64,000 bases of DNA from Anaerolineae bacterium (lineage in GTDB: Bacteria > Chloroflexota > Anaerolineae > B4-G1 > SLSP01). The notes below the pieces were generated by a model. That model worked only from the letters and a program-made list of their open reading frames with translations. It was not told where the DNA came from and did not search any database. The translations under genes were made by a program, and so were the position numbers. This document shows, piece after piece, positions 44,206-60,415 of the stretch (position 1 is the stretch's first letter; each line of letters opens with the position of its first letter). The stretch covers positions 47,127-111,126 of the forward strand of contig JBNGCP010000002.1 of the NCBI GenBank assembly GCA_049974845.1, written 5' to 3'.

Positions 44206-47200
44206 TCAGGGAGCAGGTGTTACTCCGTCCACGACAACCGGCAGATAGATCAGCCGTTGTAGGCAGAGATCCACGTCAACGTCGGCGCTGCCCACCACTC
44301 GGTTGCCCCAGCTATCCACCGCTTCCACCCTCACCGTGTACGTCCCGCACGTGGCATACGTGTGGCTGGCGTCCGCTGTCGCGTAGGCTGGCGTGTAGGA
44401 GCTGCCGTCACCGAAGTCCCACCTGAAGCTGACGCCGTGGGTGTCGGTGATATTCGAGGTAAGCTCCGCTTCAAAGACCGTAAGGCTGCTGGCATTATCC
44501 GGCGTGACGTTGTTGATTGTCACCATCGGCTCGTCAGCGGCCCAGGCAAGGAAGCCGGAGAGCAGCTCCGAGCGGCTCGTGCCGCCGTGGACATCATTTA
44601 CCCCCTCCAGCCCAAAGGTCGTGTAGACCGACCGGCCCAGGTAAGTGATACCGGGGCGCTCCAGGGTGGGCTGATCACGATGCGCCATTGCCACCACACC
44701 TTCGTCGATGTTGTTGGCGCCGGGATACATAAGAAGCGGCGTGTAGGCCAGCGGACCCTCCGTATCACCCGGCGAGGCCCAAGGTTGGGGAGCGATCTCG
44801 TCAACGTACCATTGGTTGCCCGCACCATCCTTGATGACGTGGGGCACAAGCTGCGCCCTCACTTCGCCGGCGGGGTTGTCGGTCGAGTGCACGTTGACGT
44901 ACAGATTGCCGGCCAGGTAGAGATTCAACAGCTGTTGTGTGAAGGTCAGATCCCCGCTCCAGCTCAACGTCTCCGTCACTACCTGGGTCTGGGTGAAGGG
45001 GAAGATCGGAACGAGCGCAGGCCCGTTCACGTCCACCGTGCCACTGTGAATGTGAGCGGCGGTGATGGACACCGTATCGCTGACGGCGAGCATCACCTGG
45101 TAATCAAAGGTGTTGGTATTCTGCTCGTAGCCGTAGACGATCTCACCTGAGGTGGTGGTCGCTACCGGCGGCACTTCGTTGTAGCCCGCCAGCACCGACC
45201 TGGTGAACATCGGGACGCCGATGTCCACGTCGAGGTCGGCCAGCGCCGCCGGGGCAGCGTCGTGCGGCACGATGCGCCGGCCCGGAGCGCCGAATGCCGT
45301 CACGCTGTCCTGCAGCCAGTTTCCGCCCAGCACAGCGCTGTAGAAGAACTCACCGCTGTCGGGAGCAGCGGAGCCGAGAACACTGGACAGATCCTGGCCC
45401 ATCGCGATGATGGTGCCGCCGGCATTCGCATACTCGGTCAGGATATTCATATCCAGCGAGGTGAGCGGTGTCGACACGGTGAAAGTCCCATCAGGGTAGA
45501 AGTTGTCGCCGGTGAAGATGAGGATCGTGTCGTAGGCCATCAGCGTTGCGGCGTCGGGGATCGTGGTAGCACGCCCGTAGTAAAGCCCGGCGTCCCACAC
45601 GTCGTACGTCAGGCCAATGTCATCCAGCGCATTGGTGTAGTAGGCGAGATAGTCAGGGAAGCCGAGCAACGAGTTGGCGCCGACATCGATGATCAACACA
45701 TCAGCTTCAGCGGGCATCGCCGTTGTGCGTGCCCACGCCGGTGCGTGCGCCTCATGCTGCTGATCGCCGGCGAGGATGATGAAGCCCTGATTGTCGCCGA
45801 TACCTGCGCTCGTCGTGCTGTCGAAGGTCACCGAGATTGTCGTCGACGCTCCCGGCGCCAGCGTGACCGAGCTCGGCGCCACAGAGAAGCCGGGCAGCGT
45901 CGTGGTCACATTCTCAAAACCGTCCCCGGTGTAGAGCGTGCTCAGCTCGTAGGTCTCCGTCGCATCGGTGATGTTCCTGACCGCGACGGTGAGCGTTTTG
46001 CTCGTCCCCGTCATCACAAGGCCGAAGCTCAGGCTTGGTGGGTCGAGGATGACGCCCGGGTCTGCGGCCTTCCCTACATCGATCCGCCCGGCGCCCATAT
46101 CCAGCGGCTGGGCGGGCGAGCCATCGGCGTTGTAGACCTCCAGATACTTGGACGTGGACATCAACGCCGACTTGATGTCGGCATTGGACCAGTCAGGATG
46201 GAGCGCCCGCAGCAGGGCCGCCGCGCCCGCAACGTGCGGCGCGGCCATCGAGGTACCGGAGGCCTGGCCATAGCCCAGGTGCCGATCCTCGCCGACGGCG
46301 CCGGGCGTAAAGCCTTGCGCTATGATGTTGACGCCAGGCGCAGCGACGTCGGGCTTGAGCACGTTGCCGACGCCAGGCCCGCGACTGCTGAAGTTGGCGA
46401 TGACGTCCGGAACGTTGCCAGCCTGGAAGGCGATGGTGTTGAGCTCGAGCACCGCATCGACGCCAGCCGTCTCGGCTTCGGCCTGCTTGTCGACCATCGC
46501 CTCGCCGGCCGTCTGGCCAATGAAGACCGAGGAGATAGTCACCTGGTCGGCGAAGTCGGCTCCAGCCATATTGATCAACTCATCGCCGTCATTATTATAG
46601 ATGACCGCGAATTCGGCACCGGCCTCTTGAGCGTAGTAGACCTTCGTACTGAAGGTGCAGCCACCCCGGCTGATGACGGCCGCGTGGCCTGTGAAGGCGT
46701 CAGCCGGGAACGGATCACACCCCGTAGTGTTTGCGGGGGTCACATTGGCAGCCGACAGGTACGTGTGCGTGATGACCGTGGCCTGCGGCAGCGGCGCGCC
46801 GAAATCAGCCGTTCCATAGGCGACGTTCTGTAACGTCGGTGAGATGGGTTCCGGCGCGATCACGCTCAACCGCCCGGCTCTATAGGTGCCGCCGGTCGAG
46901 CTCGCCGCCACATTGATGTAATCCGGGGAGGGATGGTCACCCGTCCCCAATCCGGGTCCGGCGTTGCCGTTGGACATTGAGACAAAGATCCCGGCCTCCG
47001 CGGCGTTGATCAGCGCCGCGTCCAGTGCGTCGAACTCACCTCCCAGGCTTCCCGGACCGCCACCCCAGGAGTTGTTGAGGACATCAGCGCCGTCGGCGAC
47101 GATATCCTCAAGGGCAGCGAGACCCTCTGCCGTGTAGAAGGAGCCGTCATTCGTCACGCTATTGTAGAAGACGCGATAGCTCATCAGCCACGCGCCCGGC

Positions 47201-48114
47201 GCAACGCCGCTCAGCGGCGGCACGTCAGCCCCCAGATATGTGACGTCCGTCATCACGTTGCCCGCGGCTATCGAGCCGGTGTGGTTACCGTGCGGCGTAC
47301 CTCTGGTGCCCGGCCAGGGATTCTCATCGCCAGCCGACGGGGGATCCCACTCACGGAAGTAGACGCGCGAGGCGATGATCTTGCCGTTGTTGTTCTCGGT
47401 AAAGCCCAGGCCGTTGGGTGGAAAATCGGCCGGATAGTCGAAACCCGTGCCGTCGAACATCGGGGCGGCGTGATGCAGCCCGCCATCCATGGAGGCGACT
47501 TTCACTCCGGCCCCGGCATCCGCCTGTCCGCCCAGCTCGCTCCACAGCACCGGAGCGTTGATCAGGTGTGTGCTGGTATACACTTGGGGCGTATAGGCAT
47601 AGTCCAGATAGACGCGCTTGACGCCGGGAAGGCCTGCCAAGGCGCGCCGGGCAGCTTCGGGACCCACCTCACCGGGATCGACCGCCAGGCCGTTGAAAAG
47701 GATCTGATAGGTGGCGGTTTCTCGGGCGCCAAACTCGTTAATGTAGCCACTGACAGACGCTTGCGGGAGGACCGATTGCATCGCGGTGCGGAACGCGGCT
47801 TGCTCGGTCTCCAGCCGCGATACGTAGGCCTGCGCAGCGGGAGCATCGACGTTCAGACGCCCGCCGACCGACTGTAAGGAGGGAACACTCTGAGACCATA
47901 CGGACAACGGAGGCGACTCCAACTCGACAATCAGCCGGTGCGATGTCCGAGGTGTCGAGGGCTCAAGCTCAGCGGGAGAGTCGGCAGCTTGTCTGATCGG
48001 AGCTGCCAGCTCAACCGTCTCCGATCCGTCCGGTGCCTGAGCGGCAACGGGCGTGATCGCCAGCAACATCGCAAACAGAAGCAGAATATTCAGCCAACGT
48101 AGCTTTGTCATCAT
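44206..48114 (-). CDS. Secreted S8 family subtilisin-like serine peptidase with PA, CHRD and PKD domains
   Basis: Signal peptide MMTKLRWLNILLLFAMLLAITPVAAQA. Catalytic triad motifs: Asp (VASMDGG), His (HGNHTGSIAAGN), Ser (GTSMAAPHVAGAAALL). CHRD (AAHIHSGTVDVNGPALV...NLYVNVHST). C-terminal PKD (FRWDFGDGS). AAAGGA RBS. Confidence 0.85.
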   Translation of the reverse strand: MMTKLRWLNILLLFAMLLAITPVAAQAPDGSETVELAAPIRQAADSPAELEPSTPRTSHRLIVELESPPLSVWSQSVPSLQSVGGRLNVDAPAAQAYVSRLETEQAAFRTAMQSVLPQASVSGYINEFGARETATYQILFNGLAVDPGEVGPEAARRALAGLPGVKRVYLDYAYTPQVYTSTHLINAPVLWSELGGQADAGAGVKVASMDGGLHHAAPMFDGTGFDYPADFPPNGLGFTENNNGKIIASRVYFREWDPPSAGDENPWPGTRGTPHGNHTGSIAAGNVMTDVTYLGADVPPLSGVAPGAWLMSYRVFYNSVTNDGSFYTAEGLAALEDIVADGADVLNNSWGGGPGSLGGEFDALDAALINAAEAGIFVSMSNGNAGPGLGTGDHPSPDYINVAASSTGGTYRAGRLSVIAPEPISPTLQNVAYGTADFGAPLPQATVITHTYLSAANVTPANTTGCDPFPADAFTGHAAVISRGGCTFSTKVYYAQEAGAEFAVIYNNDGDELINMAGADFADQVTISSVFIGQTAGEAMVDKQAEAETAGVDAVLELNTIAFQAGNVPDVIANFSSRGPGVGNVLKPDVAAPGVNIIAQGFTPGAVGEDRHLGYGQASGTSMAAPHVAGAAALLRALHPDWSNADIKSALMSTSKYLEVYNADGSPAQPLDMGAGRIDVGKAADPGVILDPPSLSFGLVMTGTSKTLTVAVRNITDATETYELSTLYTGDGFENVTTTLPGFSVAPSSVTLAPGASTTISVTFDSTTSAGIGDNQGFIILAGDQQHEAHAPAWARTTAMPAEADVLIIDVGANSLLGFPDYLAYYTNALDDIGLTYDVWDAGLYYGRATTIPDAATLMAYDTILIFTGDNFYPDGTFTVSTPLTSLDMNILTEYANAGGTIIAMGQDLSSVLGSAAPDSGEFFYSAVLGGNWLQDSVTAFGAPGRRIVPHDAAPAALADLDVDIGVPMFTRSVLAGYNEVPPVATTTSGEIVYGYEQNTNTFDYQVMLAVSDTVSITAAHIHSGTVDVNGPALVPIFPFTQTQVVTETLSWSGDLTFTQQLLNLYLAGNLYVNVHSTDNPAGEVRAQLVPHVIKDGAGNQWYVDEIAPQPWASPGDTEGPLAYTPLLMYPGANNIDEGVVAMAHRDQPTLERPGITYLGRSVYTTFGLEGVNDVHGGTSRSELLSGFLAWAADEPMVTINNVTPDNASSLTVFEAELTSNITDTHGVSFRWDFGDGSSYTPAYATADASHTYATCGTYTVRVEAVDSWGNRVVGSADVDVDLCLQRLIYLPVVVDGVTPAP

Positions 48115-48301
48115 GACTGTCCTTTCGGGAACCTGGAATCGGGTACTCTGAAGCACCTCAGACTCAAGCCTTCTGAAGCTTCCGCGACTTCGCTGACACC
48201 TCCTTCTAGACTCAAGACACACCCCGTACCCCCAAAGGGCAGGAACACCGGATCATAGATGTTCCCGCCCTTTGACATCCCTCACGATCCACTCCACTGC
48301 G

Positions 48302-48692: not shown

Positions 48693-49442
48693 TCACGCCA
48701 GCTTGCAGATCGCGCCCGCCTGCTTGATCCGCAAGGCTATCGTCTCCAACACCCTGAAGCTGTGATCCAACCCTTCGTTTCCTTGGTACGCCGCGATGAG
48801 ATCTTGACCGACGACCAGATCGAAGTTATAGGCGCCTAGCGATAGGACCAGTCCCTGCTGACCCTCCAACAATGGCGAGCGGAAGAGCCCACCCTCAGCA
48901 ACATCCTGAACGAGGTGACGGACCAGTCGCCCCATGCCCTGCATCATCTGTTGCGTCTTGGTATAGAGCGCCGGGCTTAGCACCACAGCATAGGGGCCGA
49001 AGAAACCATCGGCAAAGAGCTGTTCGGTCGCCGATACGATGTCCGTCAACGCCCCGCCCCGCTCATCCCAGTCGCCCAACTCGACGCTCTTATCGGCGGC
49101 GTCCAGGAGCTCATTGAGGATCATCCGATCCTCAGCCTGCGCACAGGCCATCGCGGCATGCGCTGCTGCCCCTGTCTCCAGGGGAAGACCGGTCTTGCGG
49201 CTGGCTTCGATGGCTTGCCAGTACAGCATAAAAGACTCTTCGATGACTTCCAGCCGGACAAACTCACGATCCGCGCCCGTCCCAACAGGTACGAGCTCAA
49301 CCCCTGGGCCCATAGGCCCCTTCAAATCGAGGAAGCGCCGCCCCACCAGGAACTGACGGGCTGTCGCGACCACGGTCTCATCAACCCGCTCCCACTCCGA
49401 ATCCGTCAAAGGTGCATCACCCCGCATCAAATACTCACTCAT
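48693..49442 (-). CDS. Family 1 encapsulin nanocompartment shell protein (Linocin M18-like, HK97 fold)
   Basis: 249 aa. N-terminal APLTDSEWERVDE...LVGRRFLDLKGPMG and C-terminal LVVGQDLIAAYQGNEG...FRVLETIALRIK are collinear with characterised encapsulins such as the T. maritima shell protein. Confidence 0.8.
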   Translation of the reverse strand: MSEYLMRGDAPLTDSEWERVDETVVATARQFLVGRRFLDLKGPMGPGVELVPVGTGADREFVRLEVIEESFMLYWQAIEASRKTGLPLETGAAAHAAMACAQAEDRMILNELLDAADKSVELGDWDERGGALTDIVSATEQLFADGFFGPYAVVLSPALYTKTQQMMQGMGRLVRHLVQDVAEGGLFRSPLLEGQQGLVLSLGAYNFDLVVGQDLIAAYQGNEGLDHSFRVLETIALRIKQAGAICKLA

Positions 49443-49451
49443 GGTTTCCTC

Positions 49452-50441
49452 CTATTCTTCTCTTAACCTTAGGCTACCTACTGTGAATTGGCCTGCTGAC
49501 GGCTTCGGCTCCTTGTCTGGTTTCGATTCCACCGGCTGCGGTGGCGTGGGAGCCGGCGCCTTCTTTGCTGCGGCTTCCTCGGCCTCCTCCATCAACTCTC
49601 TCGTCACCGTGGCCAGGAGCCCATTGCGAGTCACCATGTTATCGATCTCGATGACCAGATCAGGGTGATCCTCGAGCTCAGGATCCTGGGCCAGCACGGT
49701 GAAGCGCTCGCGGGCTTCCTCGGTGAGCTCCAAGTCGGACGCCAGCGCGGGCAGAACTGCACGACTCATATCCACACCAGGATAGTCGAAGGGCAGCTCC
49801 TCCCCCATCTCGCTCAACTCCTCGGCAAAGTGAGACATATGCTTCATATGGCGCATCGCCGAGAGCTCCACCTCACTTCCCACCGGGCAGATGAAGTCCT
49901 CAAAAACGAAGGCGTGACGAAGCTGCTGGAGCACCAGTTTGTACTGCTCGTCAACCTCTTTGTGGAAGCGCTGCATCATATCGGGCGAAAACGCAGCCTC
50001 TTCGAACTCCAGCGGCTCCTCACCCTCAGGTCCGAGCTTCTCCAGCCAGCTCTGGAAGCGACGACGGTGTGTCAAAGACTCCCATCCAAGCTGCAGCAGA
50101 ATGCGCTTCAGCTCTCGGTCCTCCACCCCCGCCGCTTGCTCCTCGTACATCTTGATGAGATCCTCCTCAAACTCGATGTAGGAGCGCAGCAACGCGGCGT
50201 TGGACGTGCCCTCGTACGGATAGTCCGCCTTCCGCATGTCGGGCTCCGCACCCATCTCCCCGATCTCATCCCCAAGCCAGTTCATATGCCACATCTCCTC
50301 CCGCGCAGTGGAGAGCAGCATTTGACCCAGAGGCGTGTCTTCGCCAACCTGGTAGGCGTGAATGAGGTAGCGGAGAATGGATGCATGTTCGTCGGCAAGA
50401 TCCTTGTTGAGCATCTCTATGAGCCCTTCTCGATCCATCAA
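49452..50441 (-). CDS. Encapsulin cargo protein: tandem bacterioferritin/ferritin-like four-helix-bundle domains with C-terminal encapsulin targeting peptide
   Basis: Domain 1 carries the Bfr-like di-iron ligand pattern (LNKDLADEHASILRYL, REEMWHMNWLGDEIGEMG, EEDLIKMYEEQ, ESLTHRRRFQSWLEKLG). Domain 2 is the same fold with the ligands largely lost. A Pro/Lys/Ala-rich linker is followed by ...GQFTVGSLRLREE (GSL-type targeting peptide). It lies 9 nt upstream of the shell gene. Confidence 0.7.
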   Translation of the reverse strand: MMDREGLIEMLNKDLADEHASILRYLIHAYQVGEDTPLGQMLLSTAREEMWHMNWLGDEIGEMGAEPDMRKADYPYEGTSNAALLRSYIEFEEDLIKMYEEQAAGVEDRELKRILLQLGWESLTHRRRFQSWLEKLGPEGEEPLEFEEAAFSPDMMQRFHKEVDEQYKLVLQQLRHAFVFEDFICPVGSEVELSAMRHMKHMSHFAEELSEMGEELPFDYPGVDMSRAVLPALASDLELTEEARERFTVLAQDPELEDHPDLVIEIDNMVTRNGLLATVTRELMEEAEEAAAKKAPAPTPPQPVESKPDKEPKPSAGQFTVGSLRLREE

Positions 50442-50544
50442 TGACCCTCCTTGTCACGTCTCGAGATACCGAAGCCGGTGCACATAGATTAACACCAGAC
50501 GGCCAGCTCTGCAAGCTTAGTCTATGTCGCTTCTCTGCCGGCGC

Positions 50545-51792
50545 TCAGTGCTTGAAGCTCCGCTGGCCCGTGAATACCATCGTCGCGCCGGCCTCGTTCA
50601 CCGCTTCAATGACCTCGTAGTCGCGAATCGAACCACCTGGTTGGATGACAGCGGTGACGCCTTCCCTGAGGCCCACGTCAACCCCATCGCGGAAAGGGAA
50701 GAAACCGTCAGAGACCATAGCGGCGCCCTTGAGACCGCCATGTGCTTCCGCGACCTCGCGATCGATCTCCTCGGCATACTCGGGCTCCAGAAAGCGATAG
50801 GGCGTCTGATAACGCATGTAGGCAAGACGCTCGCCCATGTTGCGGTAAGCCTTGTCCCGCGCGATCACCGCCACGCCCACGCGATCCTGCTCGCCGCCCC
50901 CGATCCCCACCGTGACCCCATTCTTCACGTACAGAACCGAATTCGAGGTCACGCCGGCCTCAACCATCCAGCCGAAGAGCATGTCGTCGATTTCGCTCTC
51001 CGTTGGCGCTCGCGCGACCCTGTAAGTCTCACCCTTCCGTGTGGTCTCCGCCGGTATCAGGTCCTCCGCCGTGCGAACGGAGGGCACGAACGACAGCTGC
51101 GCGATCACGGCGCCGTCAATCAACGACTTGAAGTCAATATACTGCTCCGTCGCGAAGCTCCTGAGCCGCTCGAGCGCCCGGATCCGCATAATCCGCAGGT
51201 TCTTGCGCCCAGCCAGAATCTCGATAGTCCCCTCCTCGTACTCAGGCGCGACGACCACCTCCGCATACCGGCACGCGATAGCCTCTGCCGTCCCCTTGTC
51301 CACGGCACGGTTGAGCCCGATGCATCCACCGAAGGCCGCGATATGGTCTGCCAGGTCCGCCTTAATGTAAGCATCCTCCAAGCTATCCCCGATCGCCACC
51401 CCAGCCGGGTTGTTGTGCTTCATCACCGCCGCCGCCGGTCGATCGGGCAGATAGCGCAGGATGTTCAGGGCGTTGTCCGCATCGGTCAGATTGATCTTCC
51501 CCGGATGTTTGCCGAACTGCAGCAGCTCGGCATCGGAGACCAGATAGCGACCGGGCGCGATCGTCGTCACGTCACCCAGCGTCAGGTTGCCGTTGATCAG
51601 CCTATAGAGCGCGGCCTCCTGACCGGGATTCTCCCCATAGCGAAGGCCTTTGCGCTCACCCTCGATCTCCCACGTCACCTTCTCGTAGATCAGCGTCGAT
51701 CGACGCTCATCAAAGACGAAACTGATCTCCATCCGTGGTGGGAAGTTGTCCTCTAGGATCGTCCGGTAAGCCTTCTTGAGGTCGGTTGTCAT
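50545..51792 (-). CDS. purH: AICAR transformylase domain protein (PurH C-terminal half as a separate gene)
   Basis: AICARFT motifs [38 protein letters not shown]. Own start MTTDL at 51792 with GGGGGAGAGAG SD directly upstream. The N-terminal extension in the ORF track is out-of-frame read-through. Confidence 0.75.
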
Positions 51793-51844
51793 CTCTCTCC
51801 CCCTCTGTTCTCCCGTGTCTGCATCGTTGCTGGTCCAAGCGTTG

Positions 51845-52525
51845 CTACAAAAGCGTATAGAGCTGCGGCACCTGGGTGTGCTCCTGCTTGCCAAGGTAGT
51901 CGGCGATAGCGGCGTCGTACGCCGCCGTATGGCGAAACGCCTTGCGCGCGTAGACGAACCGGGTCTCGAGGTTCAGCGCCCCATCTCCCAGCCGAAGTGC
52001 GCCCAGCAAAGCCACGTAGTCCGCCGGATCCACCACCGGTGTGACCCGAAGGTAGTTCTTGGCCGCTGCACGCAGCATGCAAGGCCCCCCTATGTCGATG
52101 TTGGCCCGAGCCTGCTCGACCGTCACACCCGCACTAGCCACCGTCGCCTCGAACGGATAGAGGTTCACCACCACCATGTCGATCGGGATGGCGCCAGTCC
52201 GCGCCAAATCGGCCTGATGCGCATCGTTGTAGGTCTCGGTGAGCAACCCCAGGTAGACGCGAAAGTCCAGTGTCTTCACCAGCCCTCCCTGTGTCTCCGG
52301 TTGCCCCGTGTACTCGGCAACGGCCGTGAGCGTCCCCTCCGCGACCTCAGGGCCCAGAATCTCCGTAATCGCACGATAAGTCCCTCCGGTCGAATAGATG
52401 CGGACATCGGGATTGATCTCCAGTAGGCCGGGAATCAGGGCCTCAAGCCCGGACTTATCCGACACGCTGACCAGCACCCGTCGGATCTGCACCCAATCAT
52501 CGACCCTGTCTACGAAGTTCACCAT
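51845..52525 (-). CDS. purH: IMP cyclohydrolase (MGS-like) domain protein (PurH N-terminal half as a separate gene)
   Basis: RVLVSVSDKSGL, GGTYRAI, VVVNLYPF, IDIGGPCMLRAAAKN. Ends with its own stop. Start at M19 (52525) has AAGGAG 9 nt upstream. Confidence 0.75.
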   Translation of the reverse strand: MVNFVDRVDDWVQIRRVLVSVSDKSGLEALIPGLLEINPDVRIYSTGGTYRAITEILGPEVAEGTLTAVAEYTGQPETQGGLVKTLDFRVYLGLLTETYNDAHQADLARTGAIPIDMVVVNLYPFEATVASAGVTVEQARANIDIGGPCMLRAAAKNYLRVTPVVDPADYVALLGALRLGDGALNLETRFVYARKAFRHTAAYDAAIADYLGKQEHTQVPQLYTLL

Positions 52526-52658
52526 AGAGTACATCTCCTTCGCCTTGATATCTCTTGCTTCAATGACAGTGAGAAGCACAACCCAACATCATCTGGTGAG
52601 CACTGGGCAAGCGGCTGGCAGCAAGCACTGCGAGGCGGACGTCAAGCGGCACAACTGC

Positions 52659-53147
52659 CTACTCTACCTTCACAGCAAGCACGGAACAATGTGCATACTG
52701 AATAACCCGTGCTGTCAGGGTCCCACTCAACCCCCGTCGTGCGCTTTCAAGTTGAGCCTCGCCGATCACGATGAGATCTGCACCCAACTCACGGGCTACA
52801 TCCGCGATCTGGGCGTGCGGTATTCCGCGTCGCACAACCCGACTGCAGCTCACGCCCTGCGCTTTGGCGATTCCAGCTACGTGCGCGAGATAGTACCAGC
52901 CCTTTTGCTCCAGGCTTCGACGCACGGCTTCCTCAGTCTCGTCGGATGTTGCCACGACCTCATCCACAGCTCGATTGTCCACGATGTAGATAGCGGTCAG
53001 CGGCAGCCTATGAATCGCCGCCATATGGATGGCTATCCGACCGGCCCGAATCGAGGCGTCCGACCCGTCAATCGGCACCAAGATACGTGTGAATGGGCTG
53101 TCCGGCGCCTGTCTGTCGTGCTTCGCAACCTCTGAGTTATCCTGCAC
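52659..53147 (-). CDS. Universal stress protein (UspA family)
   Basis: ILVPIDGSDAS...GADLIVIG...GS...HCSVLAV Usp pattern. Confidence 0.75.
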   Translation of the reverse strand: MQDNSEVAKHDRQAPDSPFTRILVPIDGSDASIRAGRIAIHMAAIHRLPLTAIYIVDNRAVDEVVATSDETEEAVRRSLEQKGWYYLAHVAGIAKAQGVSCSRVVRRGIPHAQIADVARELGADLIVIGEAQLESARRGLSGTLTARVIQYAHCSVLAVKVE

Positions 53148-53183
53148 CGTTCACCTCCGGGCTTGTCCCCGTGCAACAACGAG

Positions 53184-53828
53184 TCACCGGTTACCCTCGC
53201 CCTGACGATTGATGCCGTGCTCGGCTTTGATGCGCTTGAGCCGAAAGAGCTCTTCGCGCTCTCTCTCCTCTAGGACGCTCTCGATATAGTCGACCCGCTC
53301 TTCATATTCCAGTATGAAGACATGCTCCAACGCGTTGACCCTGCGTTGTGTTTTCTGTAGCTCCCTTGCCAGGCGCCACACCGTCGTGATCAGCTCCGCC
53401 AGCTCCGGTATCTCATCAAGCACATTACGAAAGCGAGTGGCTGCTTCATCAAGGGAGACCGTCGTGTTCCCCATTCCGTACGGGATTTCGGGAGGGGCGC
53501 CCTTTGCTGATACCTGTGGCACCGGAACGCCCATTATGCTACTGAGTCTGACCTCGACCTCGGTAGTCTTGTTCACAGAGAGAGCAGCCCATACCAGGTG
53601 CTCGCGACCCATGACGAGCCGCGCCAGCTGCAACGCGTCATATGCATCTGCCAGCAACTTCTCAACCCTAGAGCGCATCCTCCGCGCATCATCAGCAACC
53701 CGCAGAAGCTCACTGGTCAAGACTTCGCGCTTTCGGTCGAGGATGTCGTGCCCCTCCCTGGCCAGCTCCAAGGTCTCACGGGCACGGATCAGGTTGCTCT
53801 TTGTCGGCGCGACTGACCACTGACTCAT
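53184..53828 (-). CDS. atpD: V/A-type ATP synthase subunit D
   Basis: Coiled-coil [37 protein letters not shown] and later conserved D-subunit pattern. Overlaps atpB by 4 nt. Confidence 0.8.
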
Positions 53829-55273
53829 GACTCCTCCTCGTGCTGACTGCTCTCCCTAGGAGCGCTCGCCTGCGTACGTTTTCGATAGTGTTCGTCGATC
53901 TCCTCCTCCCGCAACCGCGTGAGCTCGGATCGTGGCAGAACTGACAAGACCCGCCAGCCAGTGTCGAGCGTCTCTTCAATGGATCGCTTCTCCCGCTCTC
54001 CCTGCCCCAAGAACTGCTTCTCGAAATCCTCACCGAACTTCAAATAGGCCTGGTCGACGGGGCTCAGCTCTTCCTCACCGATCACCGAAGCTAGCGACCG
54101 CGCATCCTGGGCCTCGCCATAGGCGGCATACAGCTGCGAGGCCAGATGAGGATGATCCGCTCGCGTGTATCCCGGCCCAATGCTGTCCTTCATCAGACGG
54201 GAGAGCGAAGGCAAGATATCGACCGGAGGATAGATCCCCTGCTGAAACAGCTCGCGGCTCAGGACAATCTGTCCCTCGGTAATATACCCCGTTAGATCCG
54301 GAACCGGATGTGTGATGTCATCGTTAGGCATCGTCAGGATTGGTATCTGGGTGATGCTGCCCTCGGACTCCTTGATCTTACCTGTTCGCTCATACATAGA
54401 GGCCAGATCGCTATAGAGGTAGCCAGGGTATCCTTTACGGCTGGGTATCTCACCGCGCGCGCTGGAGACCTCGCGTACGGCCTCGCAGTAGTTGGTCATA
54501 TCAGTCAAAATGACCAGAACATGCATCCCCTCCTCGAAGGCCAGAAACTCAGCCAAGGTCAGGGCGGCCCGCGGTGTGATGATTCGCTCGACGGCAGGAT
54601 CATCCGCCAGATTCAGGAACATGGCAACTCTGCTAAGCGCACCCTCGCTCCTGAGGGCGTCCTGGAAAAACGCTGCCACATCATGCTTCACACCCAGCGC
54701 CGCAAAGACAATCGCGAACTGATCCTGACCACCATCGGCGAGCAGGCCGGCCTGGCGCGCGATCTGCGCCGCAATCTGATCATGAGGCAGCCCACTCCCG
54801 GAGAAGATGGGGAGCTTTTGTCCCAGCACGAGCGTGTTCATTCCATCTATCGCGGAGATGCCGGTGTAGATGGGGTCGTGAGGATAGCGTCGCGCCGTCG
54901 GGTTGATGGGTTGACCGTTGACGTTAGCCCACGTTTGAGCGATAGGATCAGGCAGCCCATCGATTGGGTTGCCTAAGCCGTCGAAAACCCGACCAAGCAT
55001 CTCCGCAGCTACAGGGATATGCATCGGACTACCGGTTAGCCGGACCCGCGTTTCGTCGATCGACAGGCTTGTCGTGCCGGCAAACACCTGCACAACCGCT
55101 GTCTGCTGTCCAACCTCAAGAACGCGACCTGGCCGCACCTGGCCGCTGGCATCGATGACTTCTACCACCTCATCATAGCTGACATCGGAGATCCCCTCAA
55201 TCACCACAATAGGGCCCTCAATGCCCGCAATCCCCTTGATCTCTCGACCCGCAGACATACCCAACTCGGTCAT
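53825..55273 (-). CDS. atpB: V/A-type ATP synthase subunit B
   Basis: Non-catalytic B-subunit pattern ([29 protein letters not shown]). 482 aa. Confidence 0.9.
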
Positions 55274-57054
55274 GCGTACTCCTGGGCCAGATCATCCATC
55301 TGCTGATGGAGAACCTCTTCGATCTCATCAAGCTGTTCAAGCTCATCATTGGCAACCGTAGCCTTCATCCTGACAAGCAGATCCACAATGGACTGTTCCC
55401 GCAGGACGACAATCGGGCATCCCTGCTCTATCAGGTCGGCGGCCCGGTCATGAAACGCCAGGATAAGTTGCAGCAACCGGATCTGCTTCTCAGCGGTCGT
55501 GAACGTATCGATATCGTCCATTGCGTCTTGCTGTAGAAAGCCTTCGCGCAGCAGACGTGCCACTTCGAGGACAAGCCGTTGGTCGTCCGGCAACGCATCT
55601 GCACCAATAAGCTGCACGATTTGCTGGAGCCGACTCTCTCTCTGAAGGATACTCAGGGCACGACTGCGAACCTTCTCCCAGTCGCCGTAACCCTGTTCCG
55701 TCCACCAGGCGCTCATCTCATCGACGTATTGGCTATAACTACCAAGCCAATCGACCGCAGGAAAGTGTCGCTCCGACGCCAACTCCTTGTCCAGCGCCCA
55801 AAAGCAGCGCACAAAACGACGTGTATGCTGGGTGACCGGCTCCGAGAAATCCCCCGCGGGTGGGCTGACAGCGCCGATCAGGCTGACAGAACCCAGACTC
55901 CCGCTCAACGTCGTGACCCGGCCCGCACGCTCATAGAACTCCGCGAGGCGCGTCGGCAGATAGGCGGGGAAGCCCTCCTCAGCCGGGAGTTCCTCCAGGC
56001 GGCCAGAGATCTCCCGCAGTGCCTCAGCCCACCTCGACGTTGAGTCCCCCATCAAGGCAACATCGTATCCCATATCTCGATAGTACTCCGCCAAGGTCAC
56101 GCCGGTGTAGATGCTGGCCTCACGTGCCGCCACAGGCATATTGGACGTGTTGGCGATGAGAATTGTGCGCTCCATCAAGGAGTGATCTGACCATGGATCG
56201 CGCAACTCCGGGAACTGACGCAGCACATCCGCCATCTCATTGCCACGCTCCCCGCAGCCTACGTAGATAATGACATCAGCGTCGCTCCACTTGGCAATCT
56301 GATGCTGGAGCACCGTCTTTCCCGCGCCAAAACCGCCGGGAATCGCCGCCGCCCCGCCCTTTGCCAAGGGAAAGAATGTGTCGAGAACGCGCTGTCCCGT
56401 CACAAGCAGATCGTTTGGAGGCTGTCGCTCGGCATAGGGCCGAGGTTTTCGCACCGGCCACTGCTGCAACATCGTGACGCCCTGCTCGCCCCGATCACAA
56501 GCGATCTTCGCGATCTCGTCCTCGAGCGTGTAGATGCCTTCTGGCGCAAGCCACGTGAGTTCGCCAGCAAGCCCAAGAGGAACCATCACGCGGTGCTGAA
56601 CCAAGGGTGTCTCCGGCACCTCACCCACGATCGCACCACCCGAGACCTGCTGGCCCACCTCGACGCTCGGATGAAACTCCCATTCCTTTTTGCGATAGAG
56701 GGGTGTGAGCCGCACACCACGTCCGATGAAGGTCCCGGAGCGCATCTCCATTACGGGCAACGGACGCTGAATGCCGTCGAAGATGCTTGACATCAACCCG
56801 GGCCCAAGCTCGACCGAGAGAGGCGCACCGGTGCGGTAGATCGCCGCCCCGGGCTTGAGACCCGATGTCTCCTCATAGACCTGGATGGTTAGCTCATCGC
56901 CATTAAGCTCGATCACCTCGCCGACGAGATGGTCAGCGCCGACCTCCACCACCTCCTGCATACCAATCTGCCGCGACCCACGAGCGCGCACGACTGGCCC
57001 ATTGATCCAGGTAATCGACCCGGCGCGCTCACGCGTGATCTCGGTCCCGATCAT
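55270..57054 (-). CDS. atpA: V/A-type ATP synthase catalytic subunit A
   Basis: Walker [10 protein letters not shown]. 594 aa with the A-subunit non-homologous insert region. Confidence 0.9.
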
Positions 57055-57671
57055 GCATCCCTCTCCTCAGTCAATATGTCATAGATGCGCGACCGCAGCG
57101 TGAGCCGTCGGCGGTCCAACCGTGTCTGTAGCGTATTGTCGTATCGGAAACGCCCATCAGAGCTCTCGACCACAACGCCGATTCTTTCCGAAAGATCGTC
57201 ACCAAAGGCTATCTCCACCTCGGTTGCCTCTGCCAGCCGAGTCAAAGCATCTTCATCGAACATTCCGCGGGTTTGCGGATCAGCTCGCACCAGAACACTT
57301 GCGACGCCGGGCAGATGCTCGACGGCGTCCTTCACGAGCGCCTCGGTGATTTCTGTCCAGCCTTCGAGCTTGGCAGCATCTTGTAGTCGTTCCTCCGCTA
57401 AGCCGAACACTTCGCTCAGAAGCTCCTCGCGTTTTTGCAGCCGGTGCGCGGTCGCCTCGGATTGCCCCTCCGCGATTGCGCTTCGATGAATCTGGTCCAC
57501 TTCTTTGCTAGCATCGCTGATGATTCGCGCCCGGAGAGCCTCAGCTTCGACCTTCGCCCGCTCCCGAATAGTACGAGCCGTTTTCTGTGCGTCGCTAAGA
57601 ATCCGCCATCGGTCACCTTCGGCTTCGGCCTTGGCCGCTGCCCTCAGTGCGCCAACACCACTCTCGTTCAC
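57051..57671 (-). CDS. atpE: V/A-type ATP synthase subunit E
   Basis: Long coiled-coil N-terminus and globular C-terminus typical of subunit E. 206 aa. 4-nt overlaps with both neighbours. Confidence 0.7.
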   Translation of the reverse strand: MNESGVGALRAAAKAEAEGDRWRILSDAQKTARTIRERAKVEAEALRARIISDASKEVDQIHRSAIAEGQSEATAHRLQKREELLSEVFGLAEERLQDAAKLEGWTEITEALVKDAVEHLPGVASVLVRADPQTRGMFDEDALTRLAEATEVEIAFGDDLSERIGVVVESSDGRFRYDNTLQTRLDRRRLTLRSRIYDILTEERDA

Positions 57672-57973
57672 AGTCTCACTCCCAATGTGCGTCGCAGAAT
57701 CTCTCCGATGGACGGCCGATCAGGGTCAGGCCCCTCTGGCCCCGGTATCTGGACAAAGAGCGGTAGCTCGCTTCGCGCCATCAGATCGGCAATGCGATCT
57801 TGAGCCAGCTTCGCTACATCCTCGGTGATCAGAACAACCCCCACGTCACGCTGCTCCAGCACGTCATCCAAGGCAGCTCGTAGCTCAGACGCTGTCTCAG
57901 CTACCTGGCCATGGACACCCGTGAGCGCAAAACCCCAGACGGCCGGCCGCGAGCCAATCACGACAACCTTCAT
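57668..57973 (-). CDS. atpF: V/A-type ATP synthase subunit F
   Basis: MKVVVIGSRPAVWGFALTGV...VGVVLITEDVAKL pattern. 101 aa. Confidence 0.75.
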   Translation of the reverse strand: MKVVVIGSRPAVWGFALTGVHGQVAETASELRAALDDVLEQRDVGVVLITEDVAKLAQDRIADLMARSELPLFVQIPGPEGPDPDRPSIGEILRRTLGVRL

Positions 57974-57981
57974 AAGGAGAC

Positions 57982-58416
57982 TCAGCCAAGGATAATGAAA
58001 GCGATAATCAAACCGTAGATGGCCACACCCTCGGCCAGTCCCACGAAAATCAGCGCGCGGCCAAAGATCTCGGGTCTCTCAGCGATTGCTCCCACCGCGG
58101 CCGACCCTACCGTGCTAACCGCATACGCTGCTCCTAACGATCCCGCGCCCACCGCGATGGCTGCCGCTATGTAGGCCATGGAATCAGTCCCCGTCCCTTG
58201 CTGTCGCAGCCCCATAGCATAGACGACATCAGGGGCCAGGAGCCATACCAGCCCGAGCCCCGCTACGCACAGGGCGATCACTAGATGCGCCAGGCTTATG
58301 CCAAGAACCATCGGGCGCGCAGAGCTGCTATGCCCACGCCAGCGTCTGATAGCCCACAGAAGCGCCGGCAAGAAGGGAAACAATCCTGGTATCACAACCA
58401 TCAATCCTCTTAACAT
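57982..58416 (-). CDS. atpK: V/A-type ATP synthase proteolipid subunit K (c-ring)
   Basis: Gly/Ala-rich helices AVGAGSLGAAYAV and GLAEGVAIYGLIIAFI with conserved Glu. The true start may be the internal Met (MVLGISL). Confidence 0.75.
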   Translation of the reverse strand: MLRGLMVVIPGLFPFLPALLWAIRRWRGHSSSARPMVLGISLAHLVIALCVAGLGLVWLLAPDVVYAMGLRQQGTGTDSMAYIAAAIAVGAGSLGAAYAVSTVGSAAVGAIAERPEIFGRALIFVGLAEGVAIYGLIIAFIILG

Positions 58417-58462
58417 ATCGAAACCTCCTCATTGAGGACTAGCTATGCGGAATCGACGTGCA

Positions 58463-60415
58463 CTAAGGCCGCTGCTCCGCTCCCAGCAGCGTCAACGGCT
58501 GGTACTGCTCTCCACCGCCTGAGAAGAACTTATCGAAAAGCTCATAGTATTCCAACCTTAGTGTCTGGATGACCACAATAAGTCCCTCAAAGCCGATCAC
58601 AAGTACATTACCCAACACCACGGTTGCCCAGTAAGCAGGGCTTCCACTGGAGCCCACCCTGCGAGCCAAAATAAACACCACAAGGCTGAGAGCTCCATGC
58701 GCAACGGCGAAGGCCCCCATCCGCACGTAGGATAGCGTGTTGCTTAAGAGACCGATGACGGCCTCAAACAGCTCGAAGAATCCCTCAAGGAGCGCCAGGC
58801 CCACATCGACATCTTCCTCCCCGCCAGAGTAGACTACGCGCGCCAAGGGCTCGTGGACCACCACGGCCAGAGCGGACACCACCGCGACCGGGACAAGCAA
58901 CCCCATGCTGACCGGCACCTTCGAGGTGAGCAGGCCGGCCCCTAACCCGATCAGCGACCAGTAGAAGGCCAGCCCTGCAAGACCCTTTCGGTCCAGTGCG
59001 AGATCCACCCACTGACCTCGAATTCCCGCTCCAACTACATTGTAGATCATCCCTAGCGTCAGCACCGCGATACCAAACCCCACTGTCGCCAGCAGCACGT
59101 CCATCGTCCGTTCAATCGGGTTGAGCCAAAGAGCCGGAATGACATCCTCAAAACCAAAGAGACTGCCGTAAAGAAACCCAAAGGCTGCGGATACGACCCC
59201 GCACGCCACCGCGATACCACCAAGTCCTGAGAAGCTCTTGAGAGCGCGGATCCTTCCGCTTAGCAGTAACGCGCCAAGGACAACCAACACAAACCCGTGG
59301 CCAACATCACCAAACATCACCCCGAAAATCAAGGGAAAAGTCAACGCCAGCAATGGCGTCGGGTCGAGCTCCTCGTACCGAGGGAGAGCATAGTTGGAGA
59401 CCAATTGCTGGAAAGCCCTGAGCGCTGGAGGATTGTTGTACTCAAACGGCGCCCGAGAGCGCTCCTCAGGTGTAGGTTCGGTGATATCGATCGTCAAGCC
59501 CGAGGAAGCCTCCGCGATAAGGCGGCGAAACTCCTCGGCTTTGGACGCCGGCACCCATCCCGTGACCACGTAGCTGTAGCGAAGCCGCTCATATTGGGCG
59601 ATCGTCTCTGCCACTCTGCGGCTCGCCCGCACCTGCCACAACAACTGACGAAGCTTGCGGATGCGCGTCTCATGAAAGTGATGAATCGCCGCCTGGCCCT
59701 GCGCGATCCCCTCCCGGGTTTCATTTAGCTCTCTATCAAGCCTATCGAGTATCTCGTCCGGCGTCCCTTGGTATTCGTCAGGCAATTCGAGGCTGTTCAG
59801 GTAAGCGCTCCGGGCCGCTCGACGAAGGATATCGCTGTCGCGCCGAAGTCCGAAAAGACCCACGGTGGCCAGGCGGTCACGCTCGTCAAGGGTGACCAGG
59901 ACTGACGGCACATGTTCCAGACTGGTCCTGAGCCGCTCAACATTGCTGAGCGGCATAGAACCGAACATCGAGAAGATATACGTAGAACTGCGAAACGTCT
60001 CAAGCTCAATGCCTAGATCAGTGAGAGGCTCGATCTGGCTTCGCAGTCGCTGAAGCTGCGCCATCCGCTCTCGTGCTTGCTCGAGCTCTCCAACGGGTCC
60101 CCGAGCCTCTTCTTCAAGGGTCTCAATCTCGCGCGCCGCCTGATCCTCCGAGATCAGATGCGGCGTACCCCCGGGCGGTTCGCCTTCCTCTACCCCCAGC
60201 AAGTCCCTGACATCCGCGATTCGCTGGATCAAACGCGCATAAGTGTTGGCTCGCTCGCGCCAGCTGCCGGGGCCCAGGTCTGCAGCCTCTTGCTCTGCTT
60301 GAGGCGGTCTCGCCAGATGGAAGACGCCAGAAGCAGCCAACGCTTCGGTCACAGCGACAATATCATGTTCAGGTACAACAAGCTCAACCTTATACATTGG
60401 CTGAGATCGGAACAT
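58463..60415 (-). CDS. atpI: V/A-type ATP synthase subunit I (a-subunit)
   Basis: 650 aa. Hydrophilic coiled-coil N-terminal half and multi-TM C-terminal half with the conserved Arg-containing helix. Confidence 0.8.
   Translation of the reverse strand: MFRSQPMYKVELVVPEHDIVAVTEALAASGVFHLARPPQAEQEAADLGPGSWRERANTYARLIQRIADVRDLLGVEEGEPPGGTPHLISEDQAAREIETLEEEARGPVGELEQARERMAQLQRLRSQIEPLTDLGIELETFRSSTYIFSMFGSMPLSNVERLRTSLEHVPSVLVTLDERDRLATVGLFGLRRDSDILRRAARSAYLNSLELPDEYQGTPDEILDRLDRELNETREGIAQGQAAIHHFHETRIRKLRQLLWQVRASRRVAETIAQYERLRYSYVVTGWVPASKAEEFRRLIAEASSGLTIDITEPTPEERSRAPFEYNNPPALRAFQQLVSNYALPRYEELDPTPLLALTFPLIFGVMFGDVGHGFVLVVLGALLLSGRIRALKSFSGLGGIAVACGVVSAAFGFLYGSLFGFEDVIPALWLNPIERTMDVLLATVGFGIAVLTLGMIYNVVGAGIRGQWVDLALDRKGLAGLAFYWSLIGLGAGLLTSKVPVSMGLLVPVAVVSALAVVVHEPLARVVYSGGEEDVDVGLALLEGFFELFEAVIGLLSNTLSYVRMGAFAVAHGALSLVVFILARRVGSSGSPAYWATVVLGNVLVIGFEGLIVVIQTLRLEYYELFDKFFSGGGEQYQPLTLLGAEQRP

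Follow-up and report, generated by a model that had tools for sequence, protein, structure and literature searches.

The 64,000-nucleotide stretch of Anaerolineae DNA analysed here (the window) contains two adjacent open reading frames that very probably form a purJ–purV pair, i.e., one functional gene for each of the two enzymes that in most bacteria are united in the bifunctional protein PurH. We base this reading on the two-ORF anatomy of the locus, the domain content of its products, their catalytic residues and motifs, purifying selection on both genes, and the recurrence of the arrangement in many genomes.

Anatomy of the purJ–purV locus

The locus lies on the minus strand (52525..50545). 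ORF A (52525..51845) starts with ATG and encodes 226 aa up to the TAG stop at 51847-51845, and ORF B (51792..50545) starts with ATG and encodes 415 aa up to the TGA stop at 50547-50545. Since the starts of the two ORFs are 733 nt apart (733 mod 3 = 1), they are located in different frames. The gene order purJ → purV is the same as the domain order of fused PurH, and proteins identical to the two products are called at NCBI with equal lengths (P0001, 226 aa; P0121, 415 aa). The features of the locus, in the direction of transcription, are as follows:

52535..52540, minus strand: purJ Shine-Dalgarno sequence AAGGAG, 9 nt 5' of the ATG at 52525 (read from the sequence)
51845..52525, minus strand: purJ (PurH2-type), putative standalone IMP cyclohydrolase of 226 aa with an MGS-like fold (profile and PDB matches, catalytic residues, dN/dS)
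51793..51844, minus strand: intergenic spacer of 52 nt (read from the sequence)
51793..51803, minus strand: purV Shine-Dalgarno sequence GGGGGAGAGAG, inside the 52-nt spacer (read from the sequence)
50545..51792, minus strand: purV (PurH1-type), putative standalone 10-formyl-THF-dependent AICAR formyltransferase of 415 aa (profile and PDB matches, motifs, dN/dS)
51646..51792, minus strand: N-terminal module of PurV, residues 1-49, ahead of LRYGENP (conserved across the family)
50737..50847, minus strand: insertion in PurV, about residues 316-352 (canonical fused PurH is without this segment)

The coordinates, the stop of the first ORF, the 52-nt gap, the ATG at 51792 and the Shine-Dalgarno sequence described in the sequence-only reading of this DNA were all found to be correct when the sequence was read again. 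The two genes would each be translated from their own Shine-Dalgarno sequence and ATG. No promoter-like or terminator-like site was found on the coding strand in the spacer or the surroundings of purJ/purV, and the comparison of the region with Rfam gave no match, for example to a ZTP riboswitch. A ZTP or other riboswitch, a promoter and a terminator were therefore rejected as candidate elements around the two genes. As the 52-nt spacer is free of terminator or promoter, purJ and purV are probably co-transcribed. No paralog of PurJ or PurV was found elsewhere in the 64-kb window.

The region 52659-60415, which precedes purJ on its strand, holds a V/A-type ATPase operon with genes for subunits I, E, A, B and D and, after these, a universal stress protein gene. 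Directly downstream of purV, also on the minus strand, there is a gene for a ferritin-like/rubrerythrin-like protein of 329 aa (49452-50441), and then a Linocin_M18 encapsulin shell gene (48693-49442). The 329-aa protein ends in ...GQFTVGSLRLREE, a tail resembling an encapsulin cargo-loading peptide, and the segment 48693-50441 looks like an encapsulin operon with a ferritin-like cargo. Further along the minus strand, a gene at 44206-48222 encodes an S8 subtilase of 1,338 aa with PA, Ig-like, CHRD and PKD domains.

Identity of the two proteins

The profile matches of both ORFs are far beyond chance. In Pfam, ORF A matched MGS (4e-10) and positions 1-67 of the 311 positions of AICARFT_IMPCHas (5e-16), and against the NCBIfam model of bifunctional PurH, NF002049, it covered positions 4-205 of 510 (2e-60). 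The phmmer search of PurJ against the PDB gave the N-terminal domains of fused PurH/ATIC (9ou7, 2e-40; human 1p4r, 3e-36). The residues K84, Y123, D144 and K156 of PurJ correspond to human Lys66, Tyr104, Asp125 and Lys137, which are the catalytic residues of IMP cyclohydrolase (Brown 2011, PMC3261824), and all four were kept in 28/28 members of the split family. Judging by domain homology together with these catalytic residues, ORF A is the IMP cyclohydrolase domain of PurH (PurH2/PurJ). The protein also has signatures of its own family. Its N-terminal extension, MVNFV..VDDWV, begins with the MVN(F/I)V start common to most relatives, and the sequence KTLDF(K/R)IYLGLL stands in place of the KTLHP...H.G(I/L)L of the human, Staphylococcus and two other fused PurH proteins. 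In the KTLDF motif, D was present in 28/28 family members and F in 27/28.

ORF B matched the remaining part of the same Pfam family (AICARFT_IMPCHas positions 68-311, 1e-56). Its best stretch against NF002049 covered positions 203-447 (2e-78), and against TIGR00355 it covered positions 205-511 of 511. The PDB matches of PurV were the C-terminal domains of fused PurH (4ehi, 2.5e-41; 3zzm, 4e-40). The motifs RYGENP (residue 51), KHNNP (125), SDGFFPF (361) and QPGGSIRD (384), as well as the C-terminal FKH, are all present and were kept in 55-64 of 64 family members; the KHNNP motif contains the catalytic Lys-His. By homology and motifs, ORF B is the AICAR formyltransferase domain of PurH (PurH1/PurV).

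Comparison of the window with ten relatives gave dN/dS values of 0.07-0.16 for PurJ and 0.06-0.11 for PurV, the synonymous sites being near saturation except against the relative L001, for which the values were 0.10 and 0.07, respectively. The earlier statement that both halves look intact is thus borne out by the conserved catalytic residues and motifs and by the dN/dS range of 0.06-0.16. From these assignments, PurV would formylate AICAR to FAICAR with 10-formyl-tetrahydrofolate as the donor, and PurJ would close the ring of FAICAR to yield IMP. With fused PurH as the guide, PurV probably acts as a homodimer. It has been reported that fused human ATIC shows no substrate channelling and that the PurH domains of human and Staphylococcus lugdunensis are active when produced separately, and that a naturally unfused PurH1/PurV was still uncharacterised in 2019 (Hunter 2019, PMC6797443).

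The PurV protein differs from canonical fused PurH in two segments. The first is the N-terminal module of 49 residues, in which ...TL.YEKVTWE..G precedes LRYGENP. It is conserved across the family and appears as a gap in the fused PurH of Staphylococcus, whose linker is short, with a few residues only where the PurJ tail and PurV residues 1-49 lie. By our reading of the alignment and of the Arg208/Tyr209 numbering of Brown 2011, human ATIC would likewise have a few residues there. The tail of PurJ and the first 49 residues of PurV together make about 50 conserved residues at the junction that short-linker fused PurH is without. Because the Staphylococcus protein has so few residues in this place, the purJ/purV junction is not a broken short canonical linker. 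The second segment is an insertion of about 37 residues (316-352), which the matching fused PDB entries and fused representatives skip by aligning in two stretches. AlphaFold2 predicted this insertion to be helical with moderate confidence, in a model of PurV that was poor overall (mean pLDDT of 59.6, below 50 for residues 1-100; alignment of 27 sequences with 72-91% identity).

We consider it improbable that purJ and purV are a paralogous pair with another use, e.g., for a nucleoside natural product, while a normal purH or purO is located elsewhere in the genome. A standalone homolog of PurJ of this kind exists: ForH (PDB 6nko), a 216-aa MGS-like IMPCH homolog, which we take to serve formycin biosynthesis and not primary metabolism, was matched by PurJ at 3e-26. 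This match is weaker than those to true PurH domains (96 vs 142 bits). Cruz et al. 2019 (PMC6486802) list 17 bacterial genomes with both purH and purV and four with purH and purJ; according to the same survey, purV/purJ generally anticorrelate with purH. No other pur genes were found near purJ/purV in the 64-kb window through which the genome is seen, and this absence, like KTLDF in place of KTLHP, was counted against the purJ–purV reading. Meanwhile, no biosynthetic cluster surrounds the two genes, their catalytic residues are intact, and the locus is core-like in its conservation across many Anaerolineae and other phyla. These observations favour two genes of purine biosynthesis that would replace purH in this organism.

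Recurrence of the two-gene layout among relatives

The 120 best listed homologs of PurJ were all 223-254 aa long and those of PurV were all 395-431 aa; no fused protein was present among the 120 listed for either half. Apart from identical entries, the listed homologs of both halves had 68-91% identity and came mostly from Anaerolineae/Chloroflexota/Thermoflexales metagenome-assembled genomes (MAGs).

In a survey of related genomes, one genome per species was scanned with PurV, and the 74 loci obtained were examined by tblastn and ORF tracing. Split-type loci accounted for 67 of them, and the other seven carried fused purH in one ORF (six Staphylococcus and one unclassified MAG). The fused PurH of Staphylococcus had 32-35% identity to PurV and 40-43% to PurJ. 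In 28 of the 67 split-type loci, purJ was directly upstream of purV. These adjacent loci belong to Anaerolineae/Anaerolineales/"Chloroflexia" MAGs, Myxococcota/Deltaproteobacteria MAGs, one unclassified bacterial MAG and two Spirochaetes MAGs. Their spacers ranged from a 16-nt overlap (-16) to 167 nt, and all three frame relations were seen, including in-frame pairs parted by stop codons. The purV gene started with ATG in nearly every case, and a Shine-Dalgarno sequence was usually visible. In two further loci, purJ was 0.8-1.0 kb upstream of purV (spacer up to 968 nt), and in 30 no purJ was found within 2.2-4 kb upstream or in the available downstream sequence; for the remaining seven, the upstream sequence was too short to judge the position of purJ. 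Cultured Desulfovibrionaceae are among the genomes with purV but no nearby purJ, which include Halodesulfovibrio aestuarii DSM 17919, H. spirochaetisodalis and Desulfovibrio cuneatus DSM 11391. The Desulfovibrionaceae relatives had 48-53% identity to the PurV of the window, and their purV loci agree with the survey of Cruz et al. 2019 (PMC6486802).

In a Lentisphaerales MAG (L031, 1160-5251), purV comes after fhs (formate-THF ligase) and folD, all three being consecutive and equally oriented, and purJ is absent within 4 kb. As fhs and folD supply 10-formyl-THF, a purV placed right after them fits a folate-dependent formyltransferase. In a Thermoflexales MAG (L020, 1291-2316), a divergent Fmt-like formyltransferase gene is located upstream of purV, and no purJ was found within 2.5 kb.

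The same locus was also present in a second assembly, the Logan assembly of run SRR24635347 (L075), which was 99.14% identical to the window over 4,516 nt without indels. It gave the same gene calls of 226 and 415 aa, and its junction and spacer were identical to those of the window. Of the 39 SNPs that separate the two assemblies over positions 50277-54792 of the window, 19 (8 amino-acid changes) are crowded into the initial 340 nt of purJ, beyond which neither purJ nor the spacer nor purV has any. Mosaicism between strains, a breakpoint of recombination or a chimeric assembly could account for this cluster. In an exact look-up in the contig index, PurV gave a match and PurJ (P0001) did not.

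The sequence-only reading had left a choice between genuine separate genes and a frameshift in the linker, and had proposed a comparison with relatives. This comparison showed the same split in the 28 adjacent loci with their varied spacers and frames, and it decides for two separate genes. There is next to no chance that the linker of a normal fused purH was disrupted here, either by a frameshift error of sequencing or assembly or by a recent mutation that turned the gene into a pseudogene, in spite of the different frames of the two ORFs and of the fact that ORF B is open upstream to 51894 and so overlaps the end of ORF A. Artefacts of this type do occur in the family: in the long-read 'Chloroflexia' MAG L019 (3260-5249), purJ is matched in pieces that lie in two frames, and the match to purV ends at residue 388. 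True indel errors are the probable reason, and L019 illustrates how a frameshift artefact in these genes looks. At the locus of the window, a frameshift is refuted because the two-gene layout recurs with varied spacers and in all frame relations, among them in-frame pairs with stop codons, because the second assembly has the identical junction without indels, and because both halves are under purifying selection with dN/dS of about 0.1. The lack of fused proteins among the best listed homologs and the conserved junction residues, missing from short-linker fused PurH, also argue against it.

Programmed frameshifting or stop read-through that would join the two ORFs into one bifunctional protein can be dismissed with similar certainty: purJ and purV do lie side by side, in the order of the fused domains and in different frames, but neither spacer length nor frame relation is conserved (-16 to 968 nt), the purV genes all have an ATG and a Shine-Dalgarno sequence of their own, purV is unlinked from purJ in 30 genomes, and no Rfam RNA family was detected. 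On this comparative evidence, frameshift, pseudogene and programmed recoding can for practical purposes be set aside.

Origin, known counterparts and annotation

The sequence-only reading had also spoken of gene fission, and this word goes beyond the data, as the standalone formyltransferases grouped apart from canonical fused PurH. PurV was searched exhaustively with HMMER against 1.84 billion cluster representatives. Full-length standalone proteins (~360-470 aa, matching in one stretch) scored from 518 down to roughly 175 bits, and the canonical fused proteins (~500-540 aa, two stretches) all scored ≤197 bits. Two longer fused proteins, P0258 (600 aa) and P0374 (574 aa), matched PurV in a single stretch. 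The formyltransferase domains of the top 150 representatives were placed in a crude neighbour-joining tree with BLOSUM distances, a midpoint root and no support values. One standalone group in this tree comprised the PurV of the window and its Myxococcota, PVC, Brocadiia, Spirochaetes and Desulfovibrionaceae relatives, with the fused P0258 nested among them. A second standalone group had the fused P0291 (550 aa) nested inside, and canonical fused PurH made up a third, separate group. Crude as it is, the tree shows the split as old and phylogenetically coherent; the ancestral state is not told by it. Because the standalone forms stand apart in the tree and about 50 junction residues are conserved, we regard PurJ/PurV as an old multi-phylum family and not as an event in this genome. 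The rare fused proteins P0258 and P0291 may be secondary fusions, and their nesting among standalone forms fits repeated fusion without proving it. P0258 has Arg at the equivalent of the catalytic Lys66 and a divergent IMPCH domain.

We also considered the idea, which we rate as rather unlikely, that the PurJ/PurV family is a surviving pre-fusion state and not a product of fission, with specific elements that dock the two proteins or permit their separate regulation. The elements specific to the family are the short C-terminal tail of PurJ, the 49-aa module of PurV and its helical insertion 316-352. If so, the docking would be non-covalent, and the two steps could be regulated separately, e.g., to control ZMP/AICAR levels. 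A similar YRT...FP motif, however, was also seen in further standalone formyltransferases, where it is again N-terminal, and in the long linker of the fused P0291, and for this reason the PurV module seems intrinsic to this type of formyltransferase domain. The presence of a similar YRT...FP N-terminus in the second standalone group and in PurV proteins without a nearby purJ weakened the module as a candidate for docking PurJ.

Two separate genes for the PurH domains have already been described. In the survey of Cruz et al. 2019 (PMC6486802), which covers 1,403 complete genomes, the separate genes are named purV (AICARFT) and purJ (IMPCH), and the two stand in for purH in 44 of the 1,266 bacterial genomes, from 10 phyla. 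The occurrence is given there as lineage-wide in Prevotellaceae, Fervidobacteriaceae, Thermodesulfobacteria, Desulfovibrionales (all studied) and Desulfobacterales. As in the window, each gene of these pairs encodes one PurH domain and both genes are separate. The main text of that survey does not name Chloroflexi/Anaerolineae, nor does it report the N-terminal module and the 316-352 insertion of PurV or the KTLDF motif of PurJ, all of which were seen here. Our literature searches linking purH with Anaerolineae, and on gene fission of the two enzymes, found nothing. The separate purJ/purV arrangement is conserved in many bacteria and is ordinary. The two-gene PurH of the window is real and conserved but of an already published kind, i.e., an addition at the level of the lineage with low surprise, and the subfamily signatures of PurJ and PurV are previously undescribed.

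Canonical PurH/ATIC (TIGR00355, NF002049; 1p4r, 1g8m, 3zzm, 4ehi) has the same domains, order, catalytic residues and motifs as the pair of the window, which in contrast consists of two polypeptides with ~50 extra junction residues and the ~37-aa formyltransferase insertion. Naturally unfused domains are likewise known from archaea, namely PurH1 and PurH2 (PMC3261824, PMC6797443). An example of PurH2 is AF1811 of Archaeoglobus fulgidus, for which both IMP cyclohydrolase activity and complementation of E. coli have been shown (PMC6797443). [quoted passage not shown] The family NF005492/PRK07106 (390 aa) also comprises standalone bacterial AICARFT-only proteins. The PurV of the window reached 135.7 bits against this model in three partial stretches, below its cut-off of 415, and it therefore belongs to a different standalone subfamily.

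The relevance of the locus lies mainly in annotation and metabolic reconstruction. The family is also natural material for the question of why PurH is usually fused despite the lack of channelling. Neither half reaches the full-length cut-offs of TIGR00355 and NF002049 (402 and 528 bits): PurJ scored 205 and 201 bits, and PurV scored 264 and 231 bits, respectively. Pipelines that need a full-length PurH score would call purine steps 9 and 10 missing or broken in Anaerolineae and other lineages. At NCBI, PurV (P0121) and its relatives are named "IMP cyclohydrolase" and PurJ (P0001) is named "hypothetical protein", and at JGI both halves are given the full bifunctional name. The Pfam family AICARFT_IMPCHas straddles the split (positions 1-67 in PurJ and 68-311 in PurV), which may be a cause of this misnaming.
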